NCBI GenBank assembly: GCA_039586795.1
Contig: JBDHJS010000042.1
Location: 1-30,339, forward strand
Direction of reading: 5' to 3'
DNA length: 30,339 nucleotides
Source: Gemmatimonadota bacterium
GTDB taxonomy: Bacteria; Gemmatimonadota; Gemmatimonadetes; Palauibacterales; KS3-K002
The position numbers and the translations under genes are program-made. Below, in pieces: positions 15,781 through 27,185 of the stretch (within the stretch, counting starts at the first letter, position 1; every line of letters starts with the position of its first letter). Under the pieces are notes generated by a model. It saw nothing but the letters and a program-made list of their open reading frames with translations, did no database searches and was not told the DNA's origin.

Positions 15781-17685
15781 CTACGGCTGCTGCCGGCGGA
15801 GGCGTCCCATGCCGCCGCCCTCGGTGGGCCACCCCTCGGTGAGCGGTGGCGAGTCGCCCCAGAGGGCCAGCAAATAGACCTGCCCTCCACCCCAAGTTTC
15901 CCTGTAGAACAGGTAGATCGTACCGTCATGCGCTACGGCTGGAGATCCCTCGATGTAGCCTCCAAAGTCGGTGCGCCACACGAGGCCCCCATCTAGTCTC
16001 CGCACCCCACAAAGTTCGTTGATGGCTGTGCCACGTTGACGGCTGCACTTGACCAGCAGGTTGTCGTCCGACAACAGGGTAGGGGCGCTTATGTGGTCGT
16101 ACTCCGCGGCGTTGGCCCAGACAGAGTCGGTGGCCCACCGTTGATTTCCAGTAATGTCGTAACTCGCCAAGCCGGTGAAGGTCTGGAAGAAGATATTACC
16201 GTCGGCGTCTATCACAGGCGGCGATTTCGAAGCGGCAATGTCGATCTGCCACAGAAGCGTCCCCGCCGAGTCGAATGCCGCGTAACCTTCGTAGTCGGCG
16301 ATGACCACCCGGTCGGTGATGAGGGCCGGGCCGGTGTAGAGCTCCCTCCCACGGAGCTCTCGCATCCAACGAATCGATCCATTCGTGCCAACTCGCCATA
16401 GAAACCCGCCATATTCGGGTCCTTTCACCTGCGCATAGATATCGCCGTTCGACGCAATCGCCGGGGCGGTCCACTGCGTGATCCGTTCGAGGAACAGGGT
16501 ATCGCGCCAGAGCTCGATACCCTGAGAGGAGATCCGACTGAGCATCACGGCATCTTCGCCATCTGCCCACAGAACAGCCACGGATCCATCTGGACCGACG
16601 GCCGGCGCGGCATCGGTATCACCTGTCGGCACCATCCACTCGATTGACCCATCAAGCGCGTGGCGCTGCGTGCATGAATGCCCGGCGACGTGGGCGCGCC
16701 CGTCCACGGCAACGGCTGGCATCGTGAGTGTCGACGAACATGTCCATTCTCTGAAGAGGAGGTTGCCGTCGCCGTCGATCGCGAGCAGCGTTTGCACTCC
16801 TGCTAACACATAGATTCTGTCGCTTCCGTCGAGCGCTGGGGCACTACTGGAGCCTGGACCGCCAAAGGGCAACGCCAATCGCCATCGTTCGGTCCCGGGC
16901 TCGATATCGTCCGGTCGCGCCGTCCGAATGTTTGCACGGTCAACGAACTGATCTACGAACACCGCATCGAGGATAGCGACGAGGTCCGTCTCGCCCGGCG
17001 CGAGGGCCGTTACCACGCACGAGTCCGCGCCGACCTCATCGATTGAGATTACGTCGGAACGCGACGCCGACCAGCCGACGCTGCCGGGCACCCACGCATC
17101 CGAGGAGTCCTCGACCGCCGCATGGAAGGTCACGCTCTGGCCAACCTTCATCAGCTGATCTGGCGTCGCGATCCGCCCCGTGACATCGGCGGGCACACCC
17201 AGCACACCCATCACGCTGAACCCGTCGATGATCGTGGAAACGGTGTTGTCCGCCTCGTCGACCTCGCTGTCACCGACCGGCTGCCAGAATGCGTCGTTGG
17301 CCTCGTAGATCGCCAGGTCCTGCGCCTCGACGCGGGACGGCCACCGCCCGGGGTCGTACTTGATGATGAGCTGTACCGGGAGGTCGAACTCGATTCCTTC
17401 CGGTGCGAAGCTGTAGACCGTGCCATCCACCACGGTCCAGCTGTCGGGATAGCCGCTCGCCGGATCGACGTTGACCGTAACGTCCTGCGAGACGGCGCCC
17501 GGCGGGACGACGAGGCTGACGGCGCCGTCGGCGAAGACGAAGTTCCCGCCCGCGGGCCCGACCCGAGTGCCGCTGGGTTCGGTGGGCGCGTCATCGTGGC
17601 AGGCGGCGAGGAAGAAAAAGGCCGGCAGGCCGATACAATGGCGGCATGCCGGCGCTCGACATACAGAGTATTTCCCGTACAACAC
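15781..17685 (-). CDS. Lipoprotein with ZU5-like N-terminal domain and PQQ-like beta-propeller
   Basis: Lipobox FLAAC; VGPAGG..VPPGAV..F.P.G.EF..PV.L ZU5-like segment; repeated SPAVA.DGTIY / G...W motifs; exact start uncertain. Confidence 0.78.
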   Translation of the reverse strand: MLYGKYSVCRAPACRHCIGLPAFFFLAACHDDAPTEPSGTRVGPAGGNFVFADGAVSLVVPPGAVSQDVTVNVDPASGYPDSWTVVDGTVYSFAPEGIEFDLPVQLIIKYDPGRWPSRVEAQDLAIYEANDAFWQPVGDSEVDEADNTVSTIIDGFSVMGVLGVPADVTGRIATPDQLMKVGQSVTFHAAVEDSSDAWVPGSVGWSASRSDVISIDEVGADSCVVTALAPGETDLVAILDAVFVDQFVDRANIRTARPDDIEPGTERWRLALPFGGPGSSSAPALDGSDRIYVLAGVQTLLAIDGDGNLLFREWTCSSTLTMPAVAVDGRAHVAGHSCTQRHALDGSIEWMVPTGDTDAAPAVGPDGSVAVLWADGEDAVMLSRISSQGIELWRDTLFLERITQWTAPAIASNGDIYAQVKGPEYGGFLWRVGTNGSIRWMRELRGRELYTGPALITDRVVIADYEGYAAFDSAGTLLWQIDIAASKSPPVIDADGNIFFQTFTGLASYDITGNQRWATDSVWANAAEYDHISAPTLLSDDNLLVKCSRQRGTAINELCGVRRLDGGLVWRTDFGGYIEGSPAVAHDGTIYLFYRETWGGGQVYLLALWGDSPPLTEGWPTEGGGMGRLRRQQP

Positions 17686-17769: not shown

Positions 17770-17804
17770 AAGCAAAGAGCCCGGGAGCGGTGCTCCCGGG
17801 CTCT
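17770..17804 (-). terminator. Intrinsic terminator
   Basis: Perfect 13-bp inverted repeat AGAGCCCGGGAGC-ACC-GCTCCCGGGCTCT followed by TTGCTT on the minus strand. Confidence 0.7.
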
Positions 17805-17838
17805 CTCCGTAACGGAATGTGTTTCCCGTTCGCCAGAC
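17770..17838 (-). ncRNA. Predicted ~68-nt small RNA antisense to the anticodon arm of the adjacent tRNA-like element
   Basis: Bounded by a sigma70-like promoter and a 13-bp terminator hairpin; nt 2-14 (TCTGGCGAACGGG) are the reverse complement of the anticodon arm sequence CCCGTTCGCCAGA. Confidence 0.6.
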
Positions 17839-17844
17839 AATTAA

Positions 17845-17873
17845 AAGCTAGCTGCTCGCTGTTCACCGGTCAA
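17845..17873 (-). promoter_or_regulatory. Sigma70-type promoter TTGACC-N17-TAGCTT
   Basis: -35 at 17873-17868, 17-nt spacer, -10 at 17850-17845, AT-rich discriminator, predicted +1 G at 17838. Confidence 0.6.
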
Positions 17874-17900
17874 GCCGAATGCCGGCGCAGGCTGCGAAAA

Positions 17901-17993
17901 TGGTGGCGTGCCCCCGGTGGGAGTTGAACCCACACGACCTTGCGGTCACCCATCTGGCGAACGGGCGCGTCTACCAATTCCGCCACGGGGCAC
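17901..17993 (-). tRNA. Non-canonical tRNA-Leu-like RNA (Leu body, anticodon positions read GCC, C33); possibly a pseudo-tRNA
   Basis: D arm TGGCGGAATTGGTAGACGCG, long variable arm T-GACC-GCAA-GGTC-GT, T arm GTGGG-TTCAACT-CCCAC (all Leu-type); anticodon arm CCCGT-TCGCCAG-ATGGG; acceptor GTGCCCCG/CGGGGGCAC with one bulge; 3' end GCCACCA. Confidence 0.85.
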
Positions 17994-18014
17994 CTTGGCC
18001 ATGAGATGACGGAC

Positions 18015-18170
18015 TCGGTATCGGGCGCGCTTATCGCCAAACAGCCTCACAGACCGCGACCACAATAGGTCGCGGCTGTCATCAGATCCTCAAAGGGAGT
18101 GAGCTAGAGCTACTGGGAGGGACGAATCGTGTTTGGAAGGGCGCGCCCGACCCTCACCGGACGCTACCGA
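18015..18170 (-). other. Structured spacer (nested inverted repeats) between leuS and the tRNA-like element
   Basis: TCGGGCGCGC/GCGCGCCCGA (10 bp), CCAAACA/TGTTTGG (7 bp), inner CCGCGACC/GGTCGCGG (8 bp), outer TCGGTA/TACCGA. Confidence 0.5.
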
Positions 18171-18172
18171 AA

Positions 18173-20626
18173 CTACCCCACCACGATGTTGATCAGCCGG
18201 TCGGGCACGAAGATCACCTTGCGGATCTGCTTCCCGTCCATGTGACGCTGCACGCCATCCTCGGCCAGCGCCTTCTCCTTCACCTCGTCCTCGGATGCGC
18301 CGCGCGGAACCGAGATGGTGGCCCGCAGCCGTCCGTTCACCTGCACGGCGATGTCGACCTCGTCGGCGACGGCGAGCTTTGGATCGTATGCTGGCCAGTT
18401 GGTACCGGTGAAGATCGAATCGCCATGGCCGAGATGCTGCCATAGCTCCTCCGCCAGGTGGGGCGCGAAGGGCGCGATCATGACGACCAGCGGCTCGATC
18501 TCGGAGCGGCGCGCCGCGCGGCCACTGGCACGCGCGATGTTCAGGTACTCCATCATCGCGGCGATCGCGGTGTTGTACTGCAGGCTGGCGATATCCTCGG
18601 TCACCTTCTTGATCGTGGCGTGCAGCTTCTGCTCGATCTCCTCCGTCTCCGGTGGCCCGTCGCCCAGCTCGCCGTTCGCCGCGTCCCAGACGCGATCGAA
18701 GAAGCGGGCGATGCCGGTGATCCCCTGCTCGCGGAAGTCGCCGCCCTCTTCGTAGGGGCCGAGGAACATCAGATAGGTGCGGAACGTGTCGGCGCCGTAC
18801 TGCTCTACGTACTCGTCGGGTATCACCACGTTGCCGCGGGACTTCGACATCTTGGCGCCTTCCCGGATGATCAGTCCGTGCTTGCGGAACTTCTCGTACG
18901 GCTCCTCGAACGGCAGGTGCCCCAGGTCGTGGAGCGCCATGGTGAGGAAGCGCGAGTACATCAGGTGCAGCACGGCGTGCTCCTCGCCGCCGATGTACAT
19001 GTCGACGGGCAGCCACTTCTTGGTGCGGTTCGCGTCGAACGGAACGTCGTGCCTGTCCGTCGACGGGTAGCGCATGAAGTACCAGCCCGAGTCGAGGAAG
19101 GTGTCCGAGACGTCGGTCTCACGCTTCGCCGGGCCGCCACACTTCGGGCACTCGACGTTAAGGAACTCCGGGTCGCGGGCCAGCGGACCGATGCCGCTCT
19201 CGTCGGGCCGGAAGTTCTCCACGTGGGGCAGGACCACAGGCAGATCTTCCTCCGGCACCGGGACAGCGCCGTCCTTCTCGCAGTGGATGACCGGGATGGG
19301 CGGCCCCCAGTAGCGCTGCCGGGAGATACACCAGTCGTGTATCCGGTAGTTCACCGCGTGCTCGCCGCGCCCCTGCGAGGCGAGCCAGTCGGTGATCTCT
19401 TTGATCGCTTGCGCCGCCGGGACGCCATCGAACTTGCCGGAGTTGACCAGCACCTCATCCTCGGTGTGCTCGGTGAAGGCGGCCTCGAGGTCGGCGTCCG
19501 GGTCGAAACCCTCATATTGGTCGGCCGGGATGACGACGATGCGGATCGGCAGATCGTATTGGGTCGCGAACTCGAAGTCGCGCTCGTCGTGCGCCGGCAC
19601 GCCCATGATGGCGCCGTGCCCGTACTCCATCAGCACGTAGTCGGCCACCCAGATCGAGATCTCCTCGTCGGTGACCGGGTTGATCGCCTTCGCCCCGGTG
19701 TCGACACCGGTCTTCTGTCGCTCCTCTCCTGCCTTGCGTCGTTCGACCAGGTCCATGGCCAGGGCGTTCCGGACGTACGACTCGACCTCGGAGCGGTGCT
19801 CGTCGGTCGTGATCTCCTGCATGTACGGATGCTCGGGCGCCAGCACCATGAAGGTGGCGCCGAACAGCGTGTCGGGCCGTGTGGTGAAGACGCGCAGCTT
19901 CTTGTCCGAGTGGCCGACGATCTCGAAATCGATGTCGGCGCCGTCGGAGCGACCGATCCAGTTCCGCTGTAGCCGCTTGGTCGAATCGGACCAGTCGATC
20001 CATTCCAGGTTGTCCAGCAGCCGCTGGGCGAAGTCGGTGATCTTGAAGAACCACTGGTCGAGGAACCGCTGAGTCACCTCGCTGCTGCAGCGCTCGCAGC
20101 GGCCGTCGATGACCTGCTCGTTGGCCAGCACGGTCTTGCACGACGGGCACCAGTTGACCGGCGCTTGGCGGCGCTCCGCCAGCCCGGCCTTATAGAGCTG
20201 CAGGAAGATCCACTGGGTCCACTTGTAGTACTCGGGCTGGGTGACGTCGACCACCCGGTCCCAGTCGTACATGAACCCCATGCGCTTCAGCTGCCGGGTG
20301 AAGTTGGCGATGTTCGACGGGATCAGCTCCATCGGGTGAGTGCGCCGCTCGAGGGCGAAGTTCTCCGAGTGGATGCCGAAGGCGTCGAACCCGATGGGCT
20401 CGAAGACGTCGTTCCCCTGCAGCTGCTTGAAGCGGCCGTGGATGTCGGCGCCGGTGAAAGCGTACACGTTCCCCACGTGCAGCCCCTCCGCCGATGGGTA
20501 GGGGTACATCATAAGGTTGTAGAAGGGATTCGCCGCCCCGTCTATGTCGACATTGTTCAGGCGGGTCTCATCCCAGCGCTTCTGCCACTTCGTCTCGACC
20601 GCGACCGGGTCGTAGCGCTCAGCCAT
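18173..20626 (-). CDS. leuS: Leucine--tRNA ligase
   Basis: MYPYPS, HIGH-like HVGN, editing domain FTTRPDTLFG and GAIMGVPAHDERD, ISRQRYWG, KMSKS, C-terminal VQVNG.LR. Confidence 0.97.
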   Translation of the reverse strand: MAERYDPVAVETKWQKRWDETRLNNVDIDGAANPFYNLMMYPYPSAEGLHVGNVYAFTGADIHGRFKQLQGNDVFEPIGFDAFGIHSENFALERRTHPMELIPSNIANFTRQLKRMGFMYDWDRVVDVTQPEYYKWTQWIFLQLYKAGLAERRQAPVNWCPSCKTVLANEQVIDGRCERCSSEVTQRFLDQWFFKITDFAQRLLDNLEWIDWSDSTKRLQRNWIGRSDGADIDFEIVGHSDKKLRVFTTRPDTLFGATFMVLAPEHPYMQEITTDEHRSEVESYVRNALAMDLVERRKAGEERQKTGVDTGAKAINPVTDEEISIWVADYVLMEYGHGAIMGVPAHDERDFEFATQYDLPIRIVVIPADQYEGFDPDADLEAAFTEHTEDEVLVNSGKFDGVPAAQAIKEITDWLASQGRGEHAVNYRIHDWCISRQRYWGPPIPVIHCEKDGAVPVPEEDLPVVLPHVENFRPDESGIGPLARDPEFLNVECPKCGGPAKRETDVSDTFLDSGWYFMRYPSTDRHDVPFDANRTKKWLPVDMYIGGEEHAVLHLMYSRFLTMALHDLGHLPFEEPYEKFRKHGLIIREGAKMSKSRGNVVIPDEYVEQYGADTFRTYLMFLGPYEEGGDFREQGITGIARFFDRVWDAANGELGDGPPETEEIEQKLHATIKKVTEDIASLQYNTAIAAMMEYLNIARASGRAARRSEIEPLVVMIAPFAPHLAEELWQHLGHGDSIFTGTNWPAYDPKLAVADEVDIAVQVNGRLRATISVPRGASEDEVKEKALAEDGVQRHMDGKQIRKVIFVPDRLINIVVG

Positions 20627-25844: not shown

Positions 25845-26921
25845 CTACCGGGTACGCACGTAGTAGAGACGCTCGTTGACCTGGTCCCCCTTGTAACGAC
25901 GGGTCTCGCTGTCACGATCCGACCGGTAGCGCTTGTAAGGCTGTTCCAGCCGTTGGTAGGTATCGGCTACGCCGCGTTCCCGCATCACGCTCTCGATCCT
26001 CTCCTCGGAGATGATCCCTTCCGAGTTGTAGCTCAGCAGAATGTGACGGCAGTCGGCAGCGGCGACGAGGTCGCCGAAAGCGCCCTCGCATTGCCGCCGC
26101 CGCGACCAGTCGGATCGCTTGTCGGCGTCCTCGGGCAGTCCCGTCTTGCCCCGTAGCTTCGGCGGTTCGTCGAACCAGCCTTCGGCGATGATCTCGGGGA
26201 TGTGGTAGTAGCCCGCGTACTGGCGCGTGTTGTAGGGCGGGTCGAGGTACAGGAGATCGAATGTCGGCAGGTCCCGAACTACCTCGATGGCGTCCCGCTG
26301 GTAGGCCCGGTGCTCGCGCCCTGTGCCCGTCACGAGAAGGGGCGGCCTGAGGCGGAGCGGGCGTGTGGCGTTAGGCTGCCAGCTCTTCACGTAGGCGGCG
26401 TAGACGCCGGTGGTGTTGGCGACGCGATCGGCGGCTTCGATCAGGCCGGCGAGCAGCACGTAGTACTCGCCGTCGTCGACCAGGCCGGTCGCTTGCCAAT
26501 CATGGATGCGGTGTCGGATCGCGTCGATCTTTCCTGCGTTCTCTGCTGTGAAGTATCGACGCTCGTGCTCCGAGCCGGCATGGCCCTCGGGGCAGAAATG
26601 CTCGTAGATGAAGCTCGACTCCGGATCGAGGGCATTGAGATGGCCGGTGACCGAGCTCAATGGATCGTCGCCGAGCGGGATCTGGTCTGCCAGGCTTCTG
26701 AACGTCGGTGCCGCATCCACCACGACGTAGGCCCATTGCAGGGCGAAGCTGAACGACATGATATCGCTCGTCGTCACCGCGTATTCGTGGCCCTTCAGGA
26801 ACTTCGCCACCGCAGCGGTCCCGGCAAACGGGTCGCACGCCGTCCCACCGGCGATGTCCAGCTCCTTCAGGGCGCCGTTGATGAACGGGATCAGCTTGCT
26901 CTTGTTGCCGATATAGCGCAC
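25845..26921 (-). CDS. D12-class N6-adenine DNA methyltransferase (FokI/NlaIII-like), orphan in this window
   Basis: MRYIGNK, motif I DPFAGTAAV, motif IV LYLDPPYN.RQY, LSYNSEG. Confidence 0.9.
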   Translation of the reverse strand: MRYIGNKSKLIPFINGALKELDIAGGTACDPFAGTAAVAKFLKGHEYAVTTSDIMSFSFALQWAYVVVDAAPTFRSLADQIPLGDDPLSSVTGHLNALDPESSFIYEHFCPEGHAGSEHERRYFTAENAGKIDAIRHRIHDWQATGLVDDGEYYVLLAGLIEAADRVANTTGVYAAYVKSWQPNATRPLRLRPPLLVTGTGREHRAYQRDAIEVVRDLPTFDLLYLDPPYNTRQYAGYYHIPEIIAEGWFDEPPKLRGKTGLPEDADKRSDWSRRRQCEGAFGDLVAAADCRHILLSYNSEGIISEERIESVMRERGVADTYQRLEQPYKRYRSDRDSETRRYKGDQVNERLYYVRTR

Positions 26922-27185
26922 GTCGGATAAGTCCCTGTTCTGGTGGAACGGGTCCGGGCTTCGGGCCTAAGATCGGGAGGGTCTCGGGAGGCAGCAACAC
27001 CTTACCAAAAGGCCCGCCGGCGCCTGCTGACCCCTCGCATCGGGCAGATGGGCTGAGGCTGATTCCACGGGACCAGCCGCACCGACGAGCCTTCTGTGGA
27101 AATCACTATAGGAACGGCCCGTCACCCGAGTATCAGCTGATTGTCAACTGGGGATCGTCCAGCGAATTTGCCTGAGCAGCGGGCC

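Follow-up and report, generated by a model that had tools for sequence, protein, structure and literature searches.

The window, that is, the whole stretch of 30,339 nt analysed here (contig JBDHJS010000042.1 of a Gemmatimonadota bacterium, genome G000 in the following), carries beside leuS a cassette of ~330 bp without a protein, in which a promoter, a 64 nt-long leader, a tRNA, a second promoter, a predicted sRNA of ~70 nt and a terminator hairpin follow each other on the minus strand. The tRNA-precursor promoter (18062-18093) consists of a direct repeat with an 11-bp period (TTGAGG at 18093-18088, ATGACA at 18082-18077) and the -10 element TATTGT (18067-18062); a -35 element at 17 bp is absent in this copy. 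The leader (17992-18055) was recognized in the alignment of copies as a degenerate inverted copy of the 5′ half of the tRNA, which itself occupies positions 17909-17991, has its anticodon GCC (reading the glycine codons GGC and GGU) at 17956-17958 and is followed by the trailer CGCCA (17904-17908), A73 being position 17909. The sigma-70-type promoter TTGACC-17-TAGCTT (17845-17873) precedes the antisense sRNA, whose predicted ends are 17838 and 17770 and which comprises block 1 (17825-17837), complementary to the anticodon arm, block 2 (17807-17817), complementary to tRNA nt 5-15 (17988-17978; 11 bp including two G-U pairs), and a terminator-like hairpin of 13 bp with a short U-tract (17776-17804) that is common to the sRNA and probably also to the tRNA precursor. 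The ORF list of the window contains no frame of at least 80 aa confined to the cassette, and when the cassette was searched for known families in Rfam, the tRNA family (RF00005) alone exceeded the gathering score.

A preliminary description had placed the sRNA promoter with a +1 at G17838, and the sequence bears this out, with TTGACC at 17873-17868, a spacer of 17 nt, TAGCTT at 17850-17845 and G17838 seven nt further on. The 13-bp hairpin is present as well, and the 13-nt complement to the anticodon arm is exact: 17837-17825 is the reverse complement of 17965-17953, the window contains no match beyond these two, and none of 100 shuffles gave any. G-U pairs, one of which had been proposed for the first nucleotide of the sRNA, lengthen the block 1 duplex to 16 bp. 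Genome-wide the seed is not unique, as three further places in G000 match at least 13 nt, and the evidence therefore lies in its proximity to the tRNA together with covariation. A strict scanner called neither the sRNA promoter (its -10 element matches at 3/6 positions) nor the terminator (short U-tract) at the window copy, so that the support for both is their conservation across copies, in most of which the spacing between TTGAC and a -10 element of the TA..T type is constant; the fold z-score of the sRNA (-5.9) stems mainly from the terminator hairpin. The place of the CCA needed adjustment: a CCA does exist ahead of the -35 element, at 17906-17904, but two nt beyond the canonical place, and the gap, previously given as 28 nt, comes to 27-30 nt, according to which CCA is taken. 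Three contigs of 151 nt assembled from RNA runs match the window exactly (X1 at 17798-17948 and 18026-18176, X2 at 18056-18206, depth ~3; the stretch was found in two of four runs), but they come without strand or ends and transcription is not established by them.

The anticodon loop, first taken as anomalous, turned out to be a normal 7-nt loop with the anticodon GCC placed on the body of a leucine tRNA. ARAGORN calls the RNA tRNA-Gly(GCC), an anticodon also assigned by comparison of the copies, and the Rfam tRNA model matches with 34.7 bits. Set against the native Leu tRNAs, the body shows A73, A15-U48, G18G19, A20a, a long variable arm and a D arm identical to that of tRNA-Leu(CAG) of G000. 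In E. coli, A73, A15-U48, G18G19 and A20a are the determinants of tRNA-Leu, and not the anticodon (excerpts of PMC9976931). The window copy has six acceptor pairs and a bulge, with one C fewer than its relatives, and C33; it may be an attenuated allele or misassembled, and a sister with a 7-bp stem (L002) has the same arm and seed.

After 26 damaged, inserted or false rows and three with Pro anticodons had been set aside, 97 rows left 68 intact copies, in which A73 is kept in 68, U48 in 67 and C2 in 66. A73 and U48 lie outside the search pattern, whereas D-loop identity bases were part of the search patterns, the T-loop was part of the rule for intactness, the patterns for the metagenome and class sets in addition required purine 37 and a non-leucine anticodon, and the copies are related, so that counts overstate independence. 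Cassette tRNAs carry the bacterial tRNA-Leu identity list (A73, A15-U48, G18G19, A20a and T-loop contacts), its D-loop and T-loop bases having been selection criteria. The cloverleaf, leader stem and terminator are 99.3% paired, with compensatory changes in 5/5 pairs of the anticodon stem. The anticodons of the intact copies are GCC (19), GCG (19), GGC (7), CAC (6, added by a second search pattern), CGC (5), GTC (4), GAC (4), ACC (2), GCT (1) and AGC (1), belonging to the Gly, Arg, Ala, Val, Asp and Ser classes; among the 36 copies found without an anticodon constraint, none has a leucine anticodon and 35 have purine 37. The nine anticodons known at the time of the count read 27.5% of codons; among 200,000 random sets 89 reach this share, and among 200,000 GC-matched sets 2,635 do. 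The codons read include ranks 2, 4, 6, 7 and 8 in G000 (1,237 long ORFs). ArgRS might charge the GCG copies and ValRS the GAC copies correctly. Because all five Leu tRNAs and the Gly set, including a normal Gly(GCC), are present in G000, a role as a missing tRNA or as an editing guide was rejected.

If such a tRNA is the toxin of a toxin-antitoxin system, it might also act without decoding, being un- or poorly charged and causing ribosome stalling or a stringent response, or titrating LeuRS or EF-Tu. U33 is present in 21/36 family copies (44/60 in the wider set) and hence missing in 15/36, CCA is encoded in place in none of the 68 intact relatives, and some allo-tRNAs are lethal to E. coli without suppressing, or are charged yet unused in translation (parts of PMC5389517), all of which would suit such a toxin. 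However, the native tRNA genes of G000 mostly do not encode CCA either, the leucine determinants outside the search pattern are intact, and purine 37 and anticodons that match abundant codons are as expected for decoding, which makes a non-decoding toxin unlikely.

That the predicted sRNA pairs, and co-varies, with the anticodon arm of its own tRNA, as first proposed, is strongly supported at the sequence level. In an alignment of 27 copies, compensatory changes occur in 15/15 pairs of the block 1 helix, and the block 2 helix, in which the conserved UUCCGUCACGG faces tRNA nt 5-15, is 98.5% paired; block 2 is present in 66/69 modules, with a compensatory change in L095. Over 25 sRNA-tRNA pairs, 93.9% are kept and 16 have two-sided changes (0/500 shuffles). 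Cognate duplexes have a mean energy of -31.9 kcal/mol versus -17.4 kcal/mol for non-cognate ones (36 copies with 29 distinct arms, five damaged copies left out; 0/50,000 permutations), the cognate sRNA ranking first in 19/36 cases only. A duplex-energy cut-off of -20 did not discriminate, as 34/61 controls passed it, and was replaced by a test for an anticodon-covering run, in which pairing of at least 9 nt was observed for 61/64 intact tRNAs (two others have 8 nt and one has 7) and for 2/61 controls. In cofolding, the sRNA is predicted to open the acceptor/D side and the anticodon arm of its own tRNA, and the pairing appears antitoxin-like and specific to the putative toxin RNA: the window sRNA gave -11.8 with its own tRNA and 0 with the five native Leu tRNAs, the native Gly tRNA and the second odd tRNA of G000, which lies on contig C22 and has another arm and a complement of its own; the sRNA of that second copy bound the window tRNA weakly (-5.4).

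The sRNA had also been described as folding into a hairpin, AACGGGA/UUCCGUU, with a free 5′ tail. The hairpin forms in the window copy, but across the copies UUCCGU(C/U)ACGG is kept as an antisense block that faces tRNA nt 5-15. A free tail is not general: in 62% of 69 sRNAs the anti-anticodon triplet is mostly unpaired, and it often lies within a hairpin loop. No good antisense block was found at L157 and at three loci with Pro anticodons (L147, L156 and L158). The latter (L147:1494-1580 in the first case) are intact leucine-type bodies with the anticodons TGG or CGG and without an antisense RNA, and thereby a counter-case to a toxin tRNA that is kept only with its sRNA; Fic or HTH-IrrE genes lie upstream of them, and a small basic ORF comes after them.

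The leader and the sRNA both resemble inverted duplicates of the tRNA 5′ half, and deletions between the leader, tRNA and sRNA repeats have occurred in several copies (L061, L087 and L442), as might be seen if these were inverted repeats at the level of DNA only, homogenized by template switching or a mobile-element mechanism and with no RNA function. However, departures from complementarity are more often G-U than A-C (25:12, 86:10 and 73:27), and this strand-specific excess argues for RNA pairing on this strand and not for DNA symmetry; given also two conserved promoters, the terminator and a cloverleaf under pairing constraint, we regard the purely DNA-level explanation as extremely unlikely. 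Template switching may nevertheless be the way in which arm and seed change together.

Two of the three functions guessed at the outset, namely that the tRNA-shaped RNA serves as a sponge or decoy to the sRNA, or that it is the ligand of an attenuator upstream of the gene at 17685, start from the same pairing, which is real, and the three other seed matches of at least 13 nt in G000 and the persistence of orphan sRNAs would be compatible with them. Yet the sRNA seed tracks the arm of its tRNA (rank correlation 0.60) and not any fixed target, it differs between the copies of one genome, the flanking genes are unrelated from copy to copy, and the downstream genes are convergent at 38/61 loci. 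A sponge fits these observations poorly and an attenuator ligand is not supported by them, and we consider either role very unlikely.

By its sequence, the leader would be a weaker cis antisense copy. Its GGTC faces the variable arm, 18044-18034 the anticodon arm, and 18030-18026 and 18013-18006 the D arm, and its closing stem (18052-18045 with 18006-17999) is 97.7% paired, with compensatory changes in 3/8 pairs. The fold-back over the D and anticodon arms is the MFE structure in the window copy; across copies, the leader alone lowers the mean anticodon-stem probability modestly, from 0.49 to 0.34, its cognate preference is weak (first rank in 4/32), and near-identical leaders occur on different arms. 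As there is no terminator between tRNA and sRNA, a full-length precursor would contain the sRNA sequence as well, and its anticodon stem is then predicted to be open in almost every one of 27 copies (mean probability 0.003). Furthermore, C74 (67/68 intact copies) and A73 can pair with G-2 and U-1 (56/68), giving a longer acceptor stem of up to 9 bp in the precursor.

Cassette tRNAs were detected in 17/31 genomes of the home family, with up to five per genome at unrelated loci, and in several other Gemmatimonadota families. Exact pattern matches in the named genome collection numbered ten, all of them in Gemmatimonadota, and 23 metagenome loci contain such tRNAs; the pattern of a Leu D arm with a non-Leu anticodon matched 31/401 genomes, and a scan of 401 genomes, with two candidates scored per genome, identified at least seven. 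Outside the home family, a downstream complement of at least 11 nt follows 24/29 tRNA-shaped matches examined, compared with 5-9 nt for native Leu tRNAs. The relatives hence carry similar odd tRNAs with cognate complements, and not the canonical tRNA-Leu without a complement that had been named as speaking against a two-RNA system. Viral contigs gave no match to three family-specific patterns; a loose pattern matched at least 120 loci there, 15 of them tRNA-shaped, and among the matches listed none has a downstream complement longer than 9 nt. In plasmids (1 record) and phages (14 records) the tRNA part matched and the cassette was not found, and the two unannotated top matches are ordinary tRNA-Leu. 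Four loci on viral contigs (L257, L262, L207 and L240) are AT-rich stand-alone leucine-like tRNAs with the anticodons GCC, GTC or GCG and broken acceptor stems; some are flanked by promoter-like and hairpin sequence, and the antisense partner is absent. On another viral contig (L185), the acceptor stem is intact and the downstream complement measures 9 nt.

From one copy to the next, the cassette has unrelated neighbours, and no partner protein was found among the nearest flanking ORFs; about a dozen of 59 cassette loci adjoin toxin-antitoxin or defence domains, a raw count without a baseline. A fixed link to leuS was rejected, since neighbours vary and the leuS site of G001 keeps a fusion only. 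In this genome of the same genus (locus L019), the leader end is fused to the terminator just after leuS, and no tRNA cassette is kept there. A stretch between leuS and the cassette of the window (18105-18170, minus strand) resembles, as judged by eye, the post-leuS stretch in G001 and G024 and is a possible relic of an older leader; judging from this relic and the fusion in G001, such cassettes appear to have occupied the leuS site earlier.

In L050 (490-850), a complete cassette flanked by an 18-nt direct repeat lies beside a truncated copy and an orphan sRNA. A two-hairpin insertion of 61-63 nt is found at the same T-loop position, after GGGT, in six copies with five different anticodons (L017, L035, L056, L058, L059 and L092), and L039 has a scar-like G55 at this position; there is no other occurrence of the insertion in G000 and none in viral contigs. 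It may be a tiny intron, and to us its second hairpin recalls the inverted repeats of IS1111-type elements. A short repeat, TTGAGGATTAGGTGTT, occurs in many intergenic regions of G000 (e.g., C55:78079 and C75:3457), in some cases beside four-helix-bundle genes.

Orphan sRNAs are common, and intact tRNAs without an sRNA are nearly absent. Of 32 readable sRNA 3′ ends, 20 lie after a tRNA, eight belong to complete orphans, three to stubs or fusions and one is unreadable, and in the copies without antisense, L007 and L162, the tRNA is damaged. These orphan antitoxins and damaged unprotected tRNAs, together with the toxin-antitoxin neighbours, make an RNA-RNA toxin-antitoxin system the best of the three initial guesses. 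The same asymmetry of loss, with the toxin often lost and the antitoxin kept, is known from toxTA of H. influenzae (PMC6957337, in part).

The promoter of the tRNA precursor has the form TTGA-N7-(T/A)TGA at a fixed distance from the -10 element in 48 cassettes. A matrix derived from cassette promoters alone identified 14 sites of at least 18 bits in G000, with one in the reversed-genome control, and these sites include both cassettes, recA, recQ, dprA, yraN, topA, a pilin-like gene and an integron-integrase fragment; ssb is just below 18 bits, and with the repeat alone, comEA and radC are picked out as well. Candidate competence boxes of this form lie at C24:44454, C50:34021, C49:791, C49:69988, C49:59685 and C57:13074, before recA, comEA, dprA, radC, ssb and recQ. 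A gene set of the recA/dprA/comEA/radC/ssb type is typical of competence regulons. Across the home family, the box was found at recA in 25/27, at dprA in 15/19 full-length matches and at comEA in 24/25, versus 1/31 at lexA and 0/27 at uvrB (three short loci in all dropped from the comEA and uvrB counts), by which SOS regulation of the cassette promoter in this family was rejected. These sites suggest that the cassette promoter would be induced at competence. In family f3, a first promoter model yielded three sites and failed; a second one revealed a related box that among 14 genes was clearly above controls only at radC in G104 (17.0) and comEA in G413 (15.0). The repeat part of the box also occurs elsewhere in the window, at 27147 (minus strand, 20.4 bits), ~210 nt upstream of a D12-class adenine methyltransferase gene (25845-26921). 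TTCGG direct repeats with an 11-bp period, a candidate SOS box, stand before one lexA paralogue of G000 and before recA in other families (L293, L408-L412), and most home-family genomes have two lexA-like genes.

The promoter box in common with competence genes would also suit a device that serves the host instead of addicting it, the sRNA gating a sublethal mistranslation or an arrest of growth while the cell is competent, and a like role has been proposed for toxTA (part of PMC6957337). However, patchy presence (17/31), up to five copies, broken copies and diversifying specificities are the pattern of a selfish element, and a host-serving device appears quite improbable to us.

We consider it fairly probable that the cassette is an all-RNA toxin-antitoxin system whose toxin tRNA inserts leucine at abundant non-leucine codons and which is armed at competence. 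The preliminary description did not recognize that a leucine body bears a foreign anticodon, that a second duplex can form, that the leader is antisense and that the promoter of the precursor is of the competence type. The toxin tRNA would be charged with leucine by LeuRS, an enzyme that does not read the anticodon, and since the anticodon of this tRNA decodes one of the abundant codons for Gly, Arg, Ala, Val, Asp or Ser, mistranslation would be proteome-wide. The competence-type promoter would give rise to a precursor that is inactive owing to the fold-back of its leader, its lengthened acceptor stem and its own 3′ sRNA sequence, and from which refolding and normal tRNA processing would slowly release active tRNA. 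The antitoxin sRNA (~70 nt), expressed from its constitutive-looking promoter, would pair with the anticodon arm and nt 5-15 and unfold its own tRNA only; when the DNA is lost or sRNA synthesis is halted, the stable tRNA would outlive the sRNA, resulting in arrest or death. Ser-identity allo-tRNAs with Leu anticodons do kill E. coli (PMC5389517, in part). The anatomy, recurrence, covariation, conserved cloverleaf, asymmetric decay and shared promoter box are established by sequence analysis, and we infer transcription, processing, leucylation, decoding, toxicity, sRNA instability and competence induction of the cassette RNAs. More tentatively, a leucine-charged mistranslating toxin with interchangeable arm/sRNA pairs, loaded at competence, might kill cells whose incoming DNA deletes the cassette, an addiction against transformation-mediated curing that we regard as possible but doubtful. 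The removal of selfish elements by natural transformation is the subject of the curing hypothesis (excerpts of PMC12378983).

If true, the toxin in this natural system would be a tRNA, one that falsifies the genetic code and has an RNA as its antidote, and the cassette would represent a third kind of RNA-RNA toxin-antitoxin system beside the two listed in TADB 3.0. It would suggest a purpose, open to testing, for tRNAs in which identity and anticodon do not match, something that the allo-tRNAs had left unanswered, and through its link to competence one could test directly if small selfish elements withstand being removed by natural transformation. The dozens of near-orthogonal tRNA/antisense pairs would be a natural set for turning tRNAs off, the cassette tRNA genes are annotated, wrongly, as normal tRNAs for Gly, Arg, Ala or Val, and the analysis also gives a candidate competence box for the Gemmatimonadota home lineage.

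The preliminary description knew of no family with such a layout, and a literature search that covered few subscription papers likewise gave no description of a tRNA with a dedicated antisense antitoxin, so that the cassette family was found undescribed so far. The type I system hok/Sok resembles the cassette in having an antisense antitoxin with its own promoter, but its toxin is a peptide, in contrast to the conserved cloverleaf that is the putative toxin here, and its antisense gene overlaps the target, whereas that of the cassette is a separate, imperfect inverted duplicate. The inert fold-back precursor of hok/Sok is activated by processing, for which the cassette would have a counterpart. 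The toxTA system of H. influenzae has a competence promoter, as proposed here, but is a type II protein pair at one locus (part of PMC6957337). The allo-tRNAs of Acidobacteria (Mukai et al., PMC5389517, in part) share the mismatch of identity and anticodon, act by lethal missense suppression in E. coli and lie near toxin-antitoxin genes, but they have an 8/4 or 9/3 fold and Ser or Ala identity; cassette tRNAs have a canonical 7/5 acceptor branch on a leucine body in intact copies and were therefore rejected as allo-tRNAs. The words 'antisense', 'complementary' and 'Gemmatimon' have no occurrence in the main text of PMC5389517. At the sequence level, the cassette appears to agree with the definition of type VIII systems in that both partners are RNA and the pairing is specific. 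SdsR-RyeA, one of the two, also has two RNA partners and antisense neutralisation, but SdsR is an mRNA-targeting sRNA that RyeA overlaps on the opposite strand, whereas the cassette genes stand in tandem on the same strand (excerpts of PMC10767807 and PMC8610362); with no overlapping opposite-strand genes and no such Rfam match, this identity was rejected. In CreTA, toxin and antitoxin are RNAs as in the cassette, but CreA, an antitoxin that resembles a CRISPR repeat, acts via Cascade on the creT promoter, and the complement in the cassette is to the RNA and not to a promoter (same sources, in part); with no Cas family among the 21 window proteins or the 121 nearest flanking ORFs, CreTA was rejected as well. 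In contrast to the toxins of SdsR-RyeA and CreTA, the putative toxin of the cassette is a tRNA.
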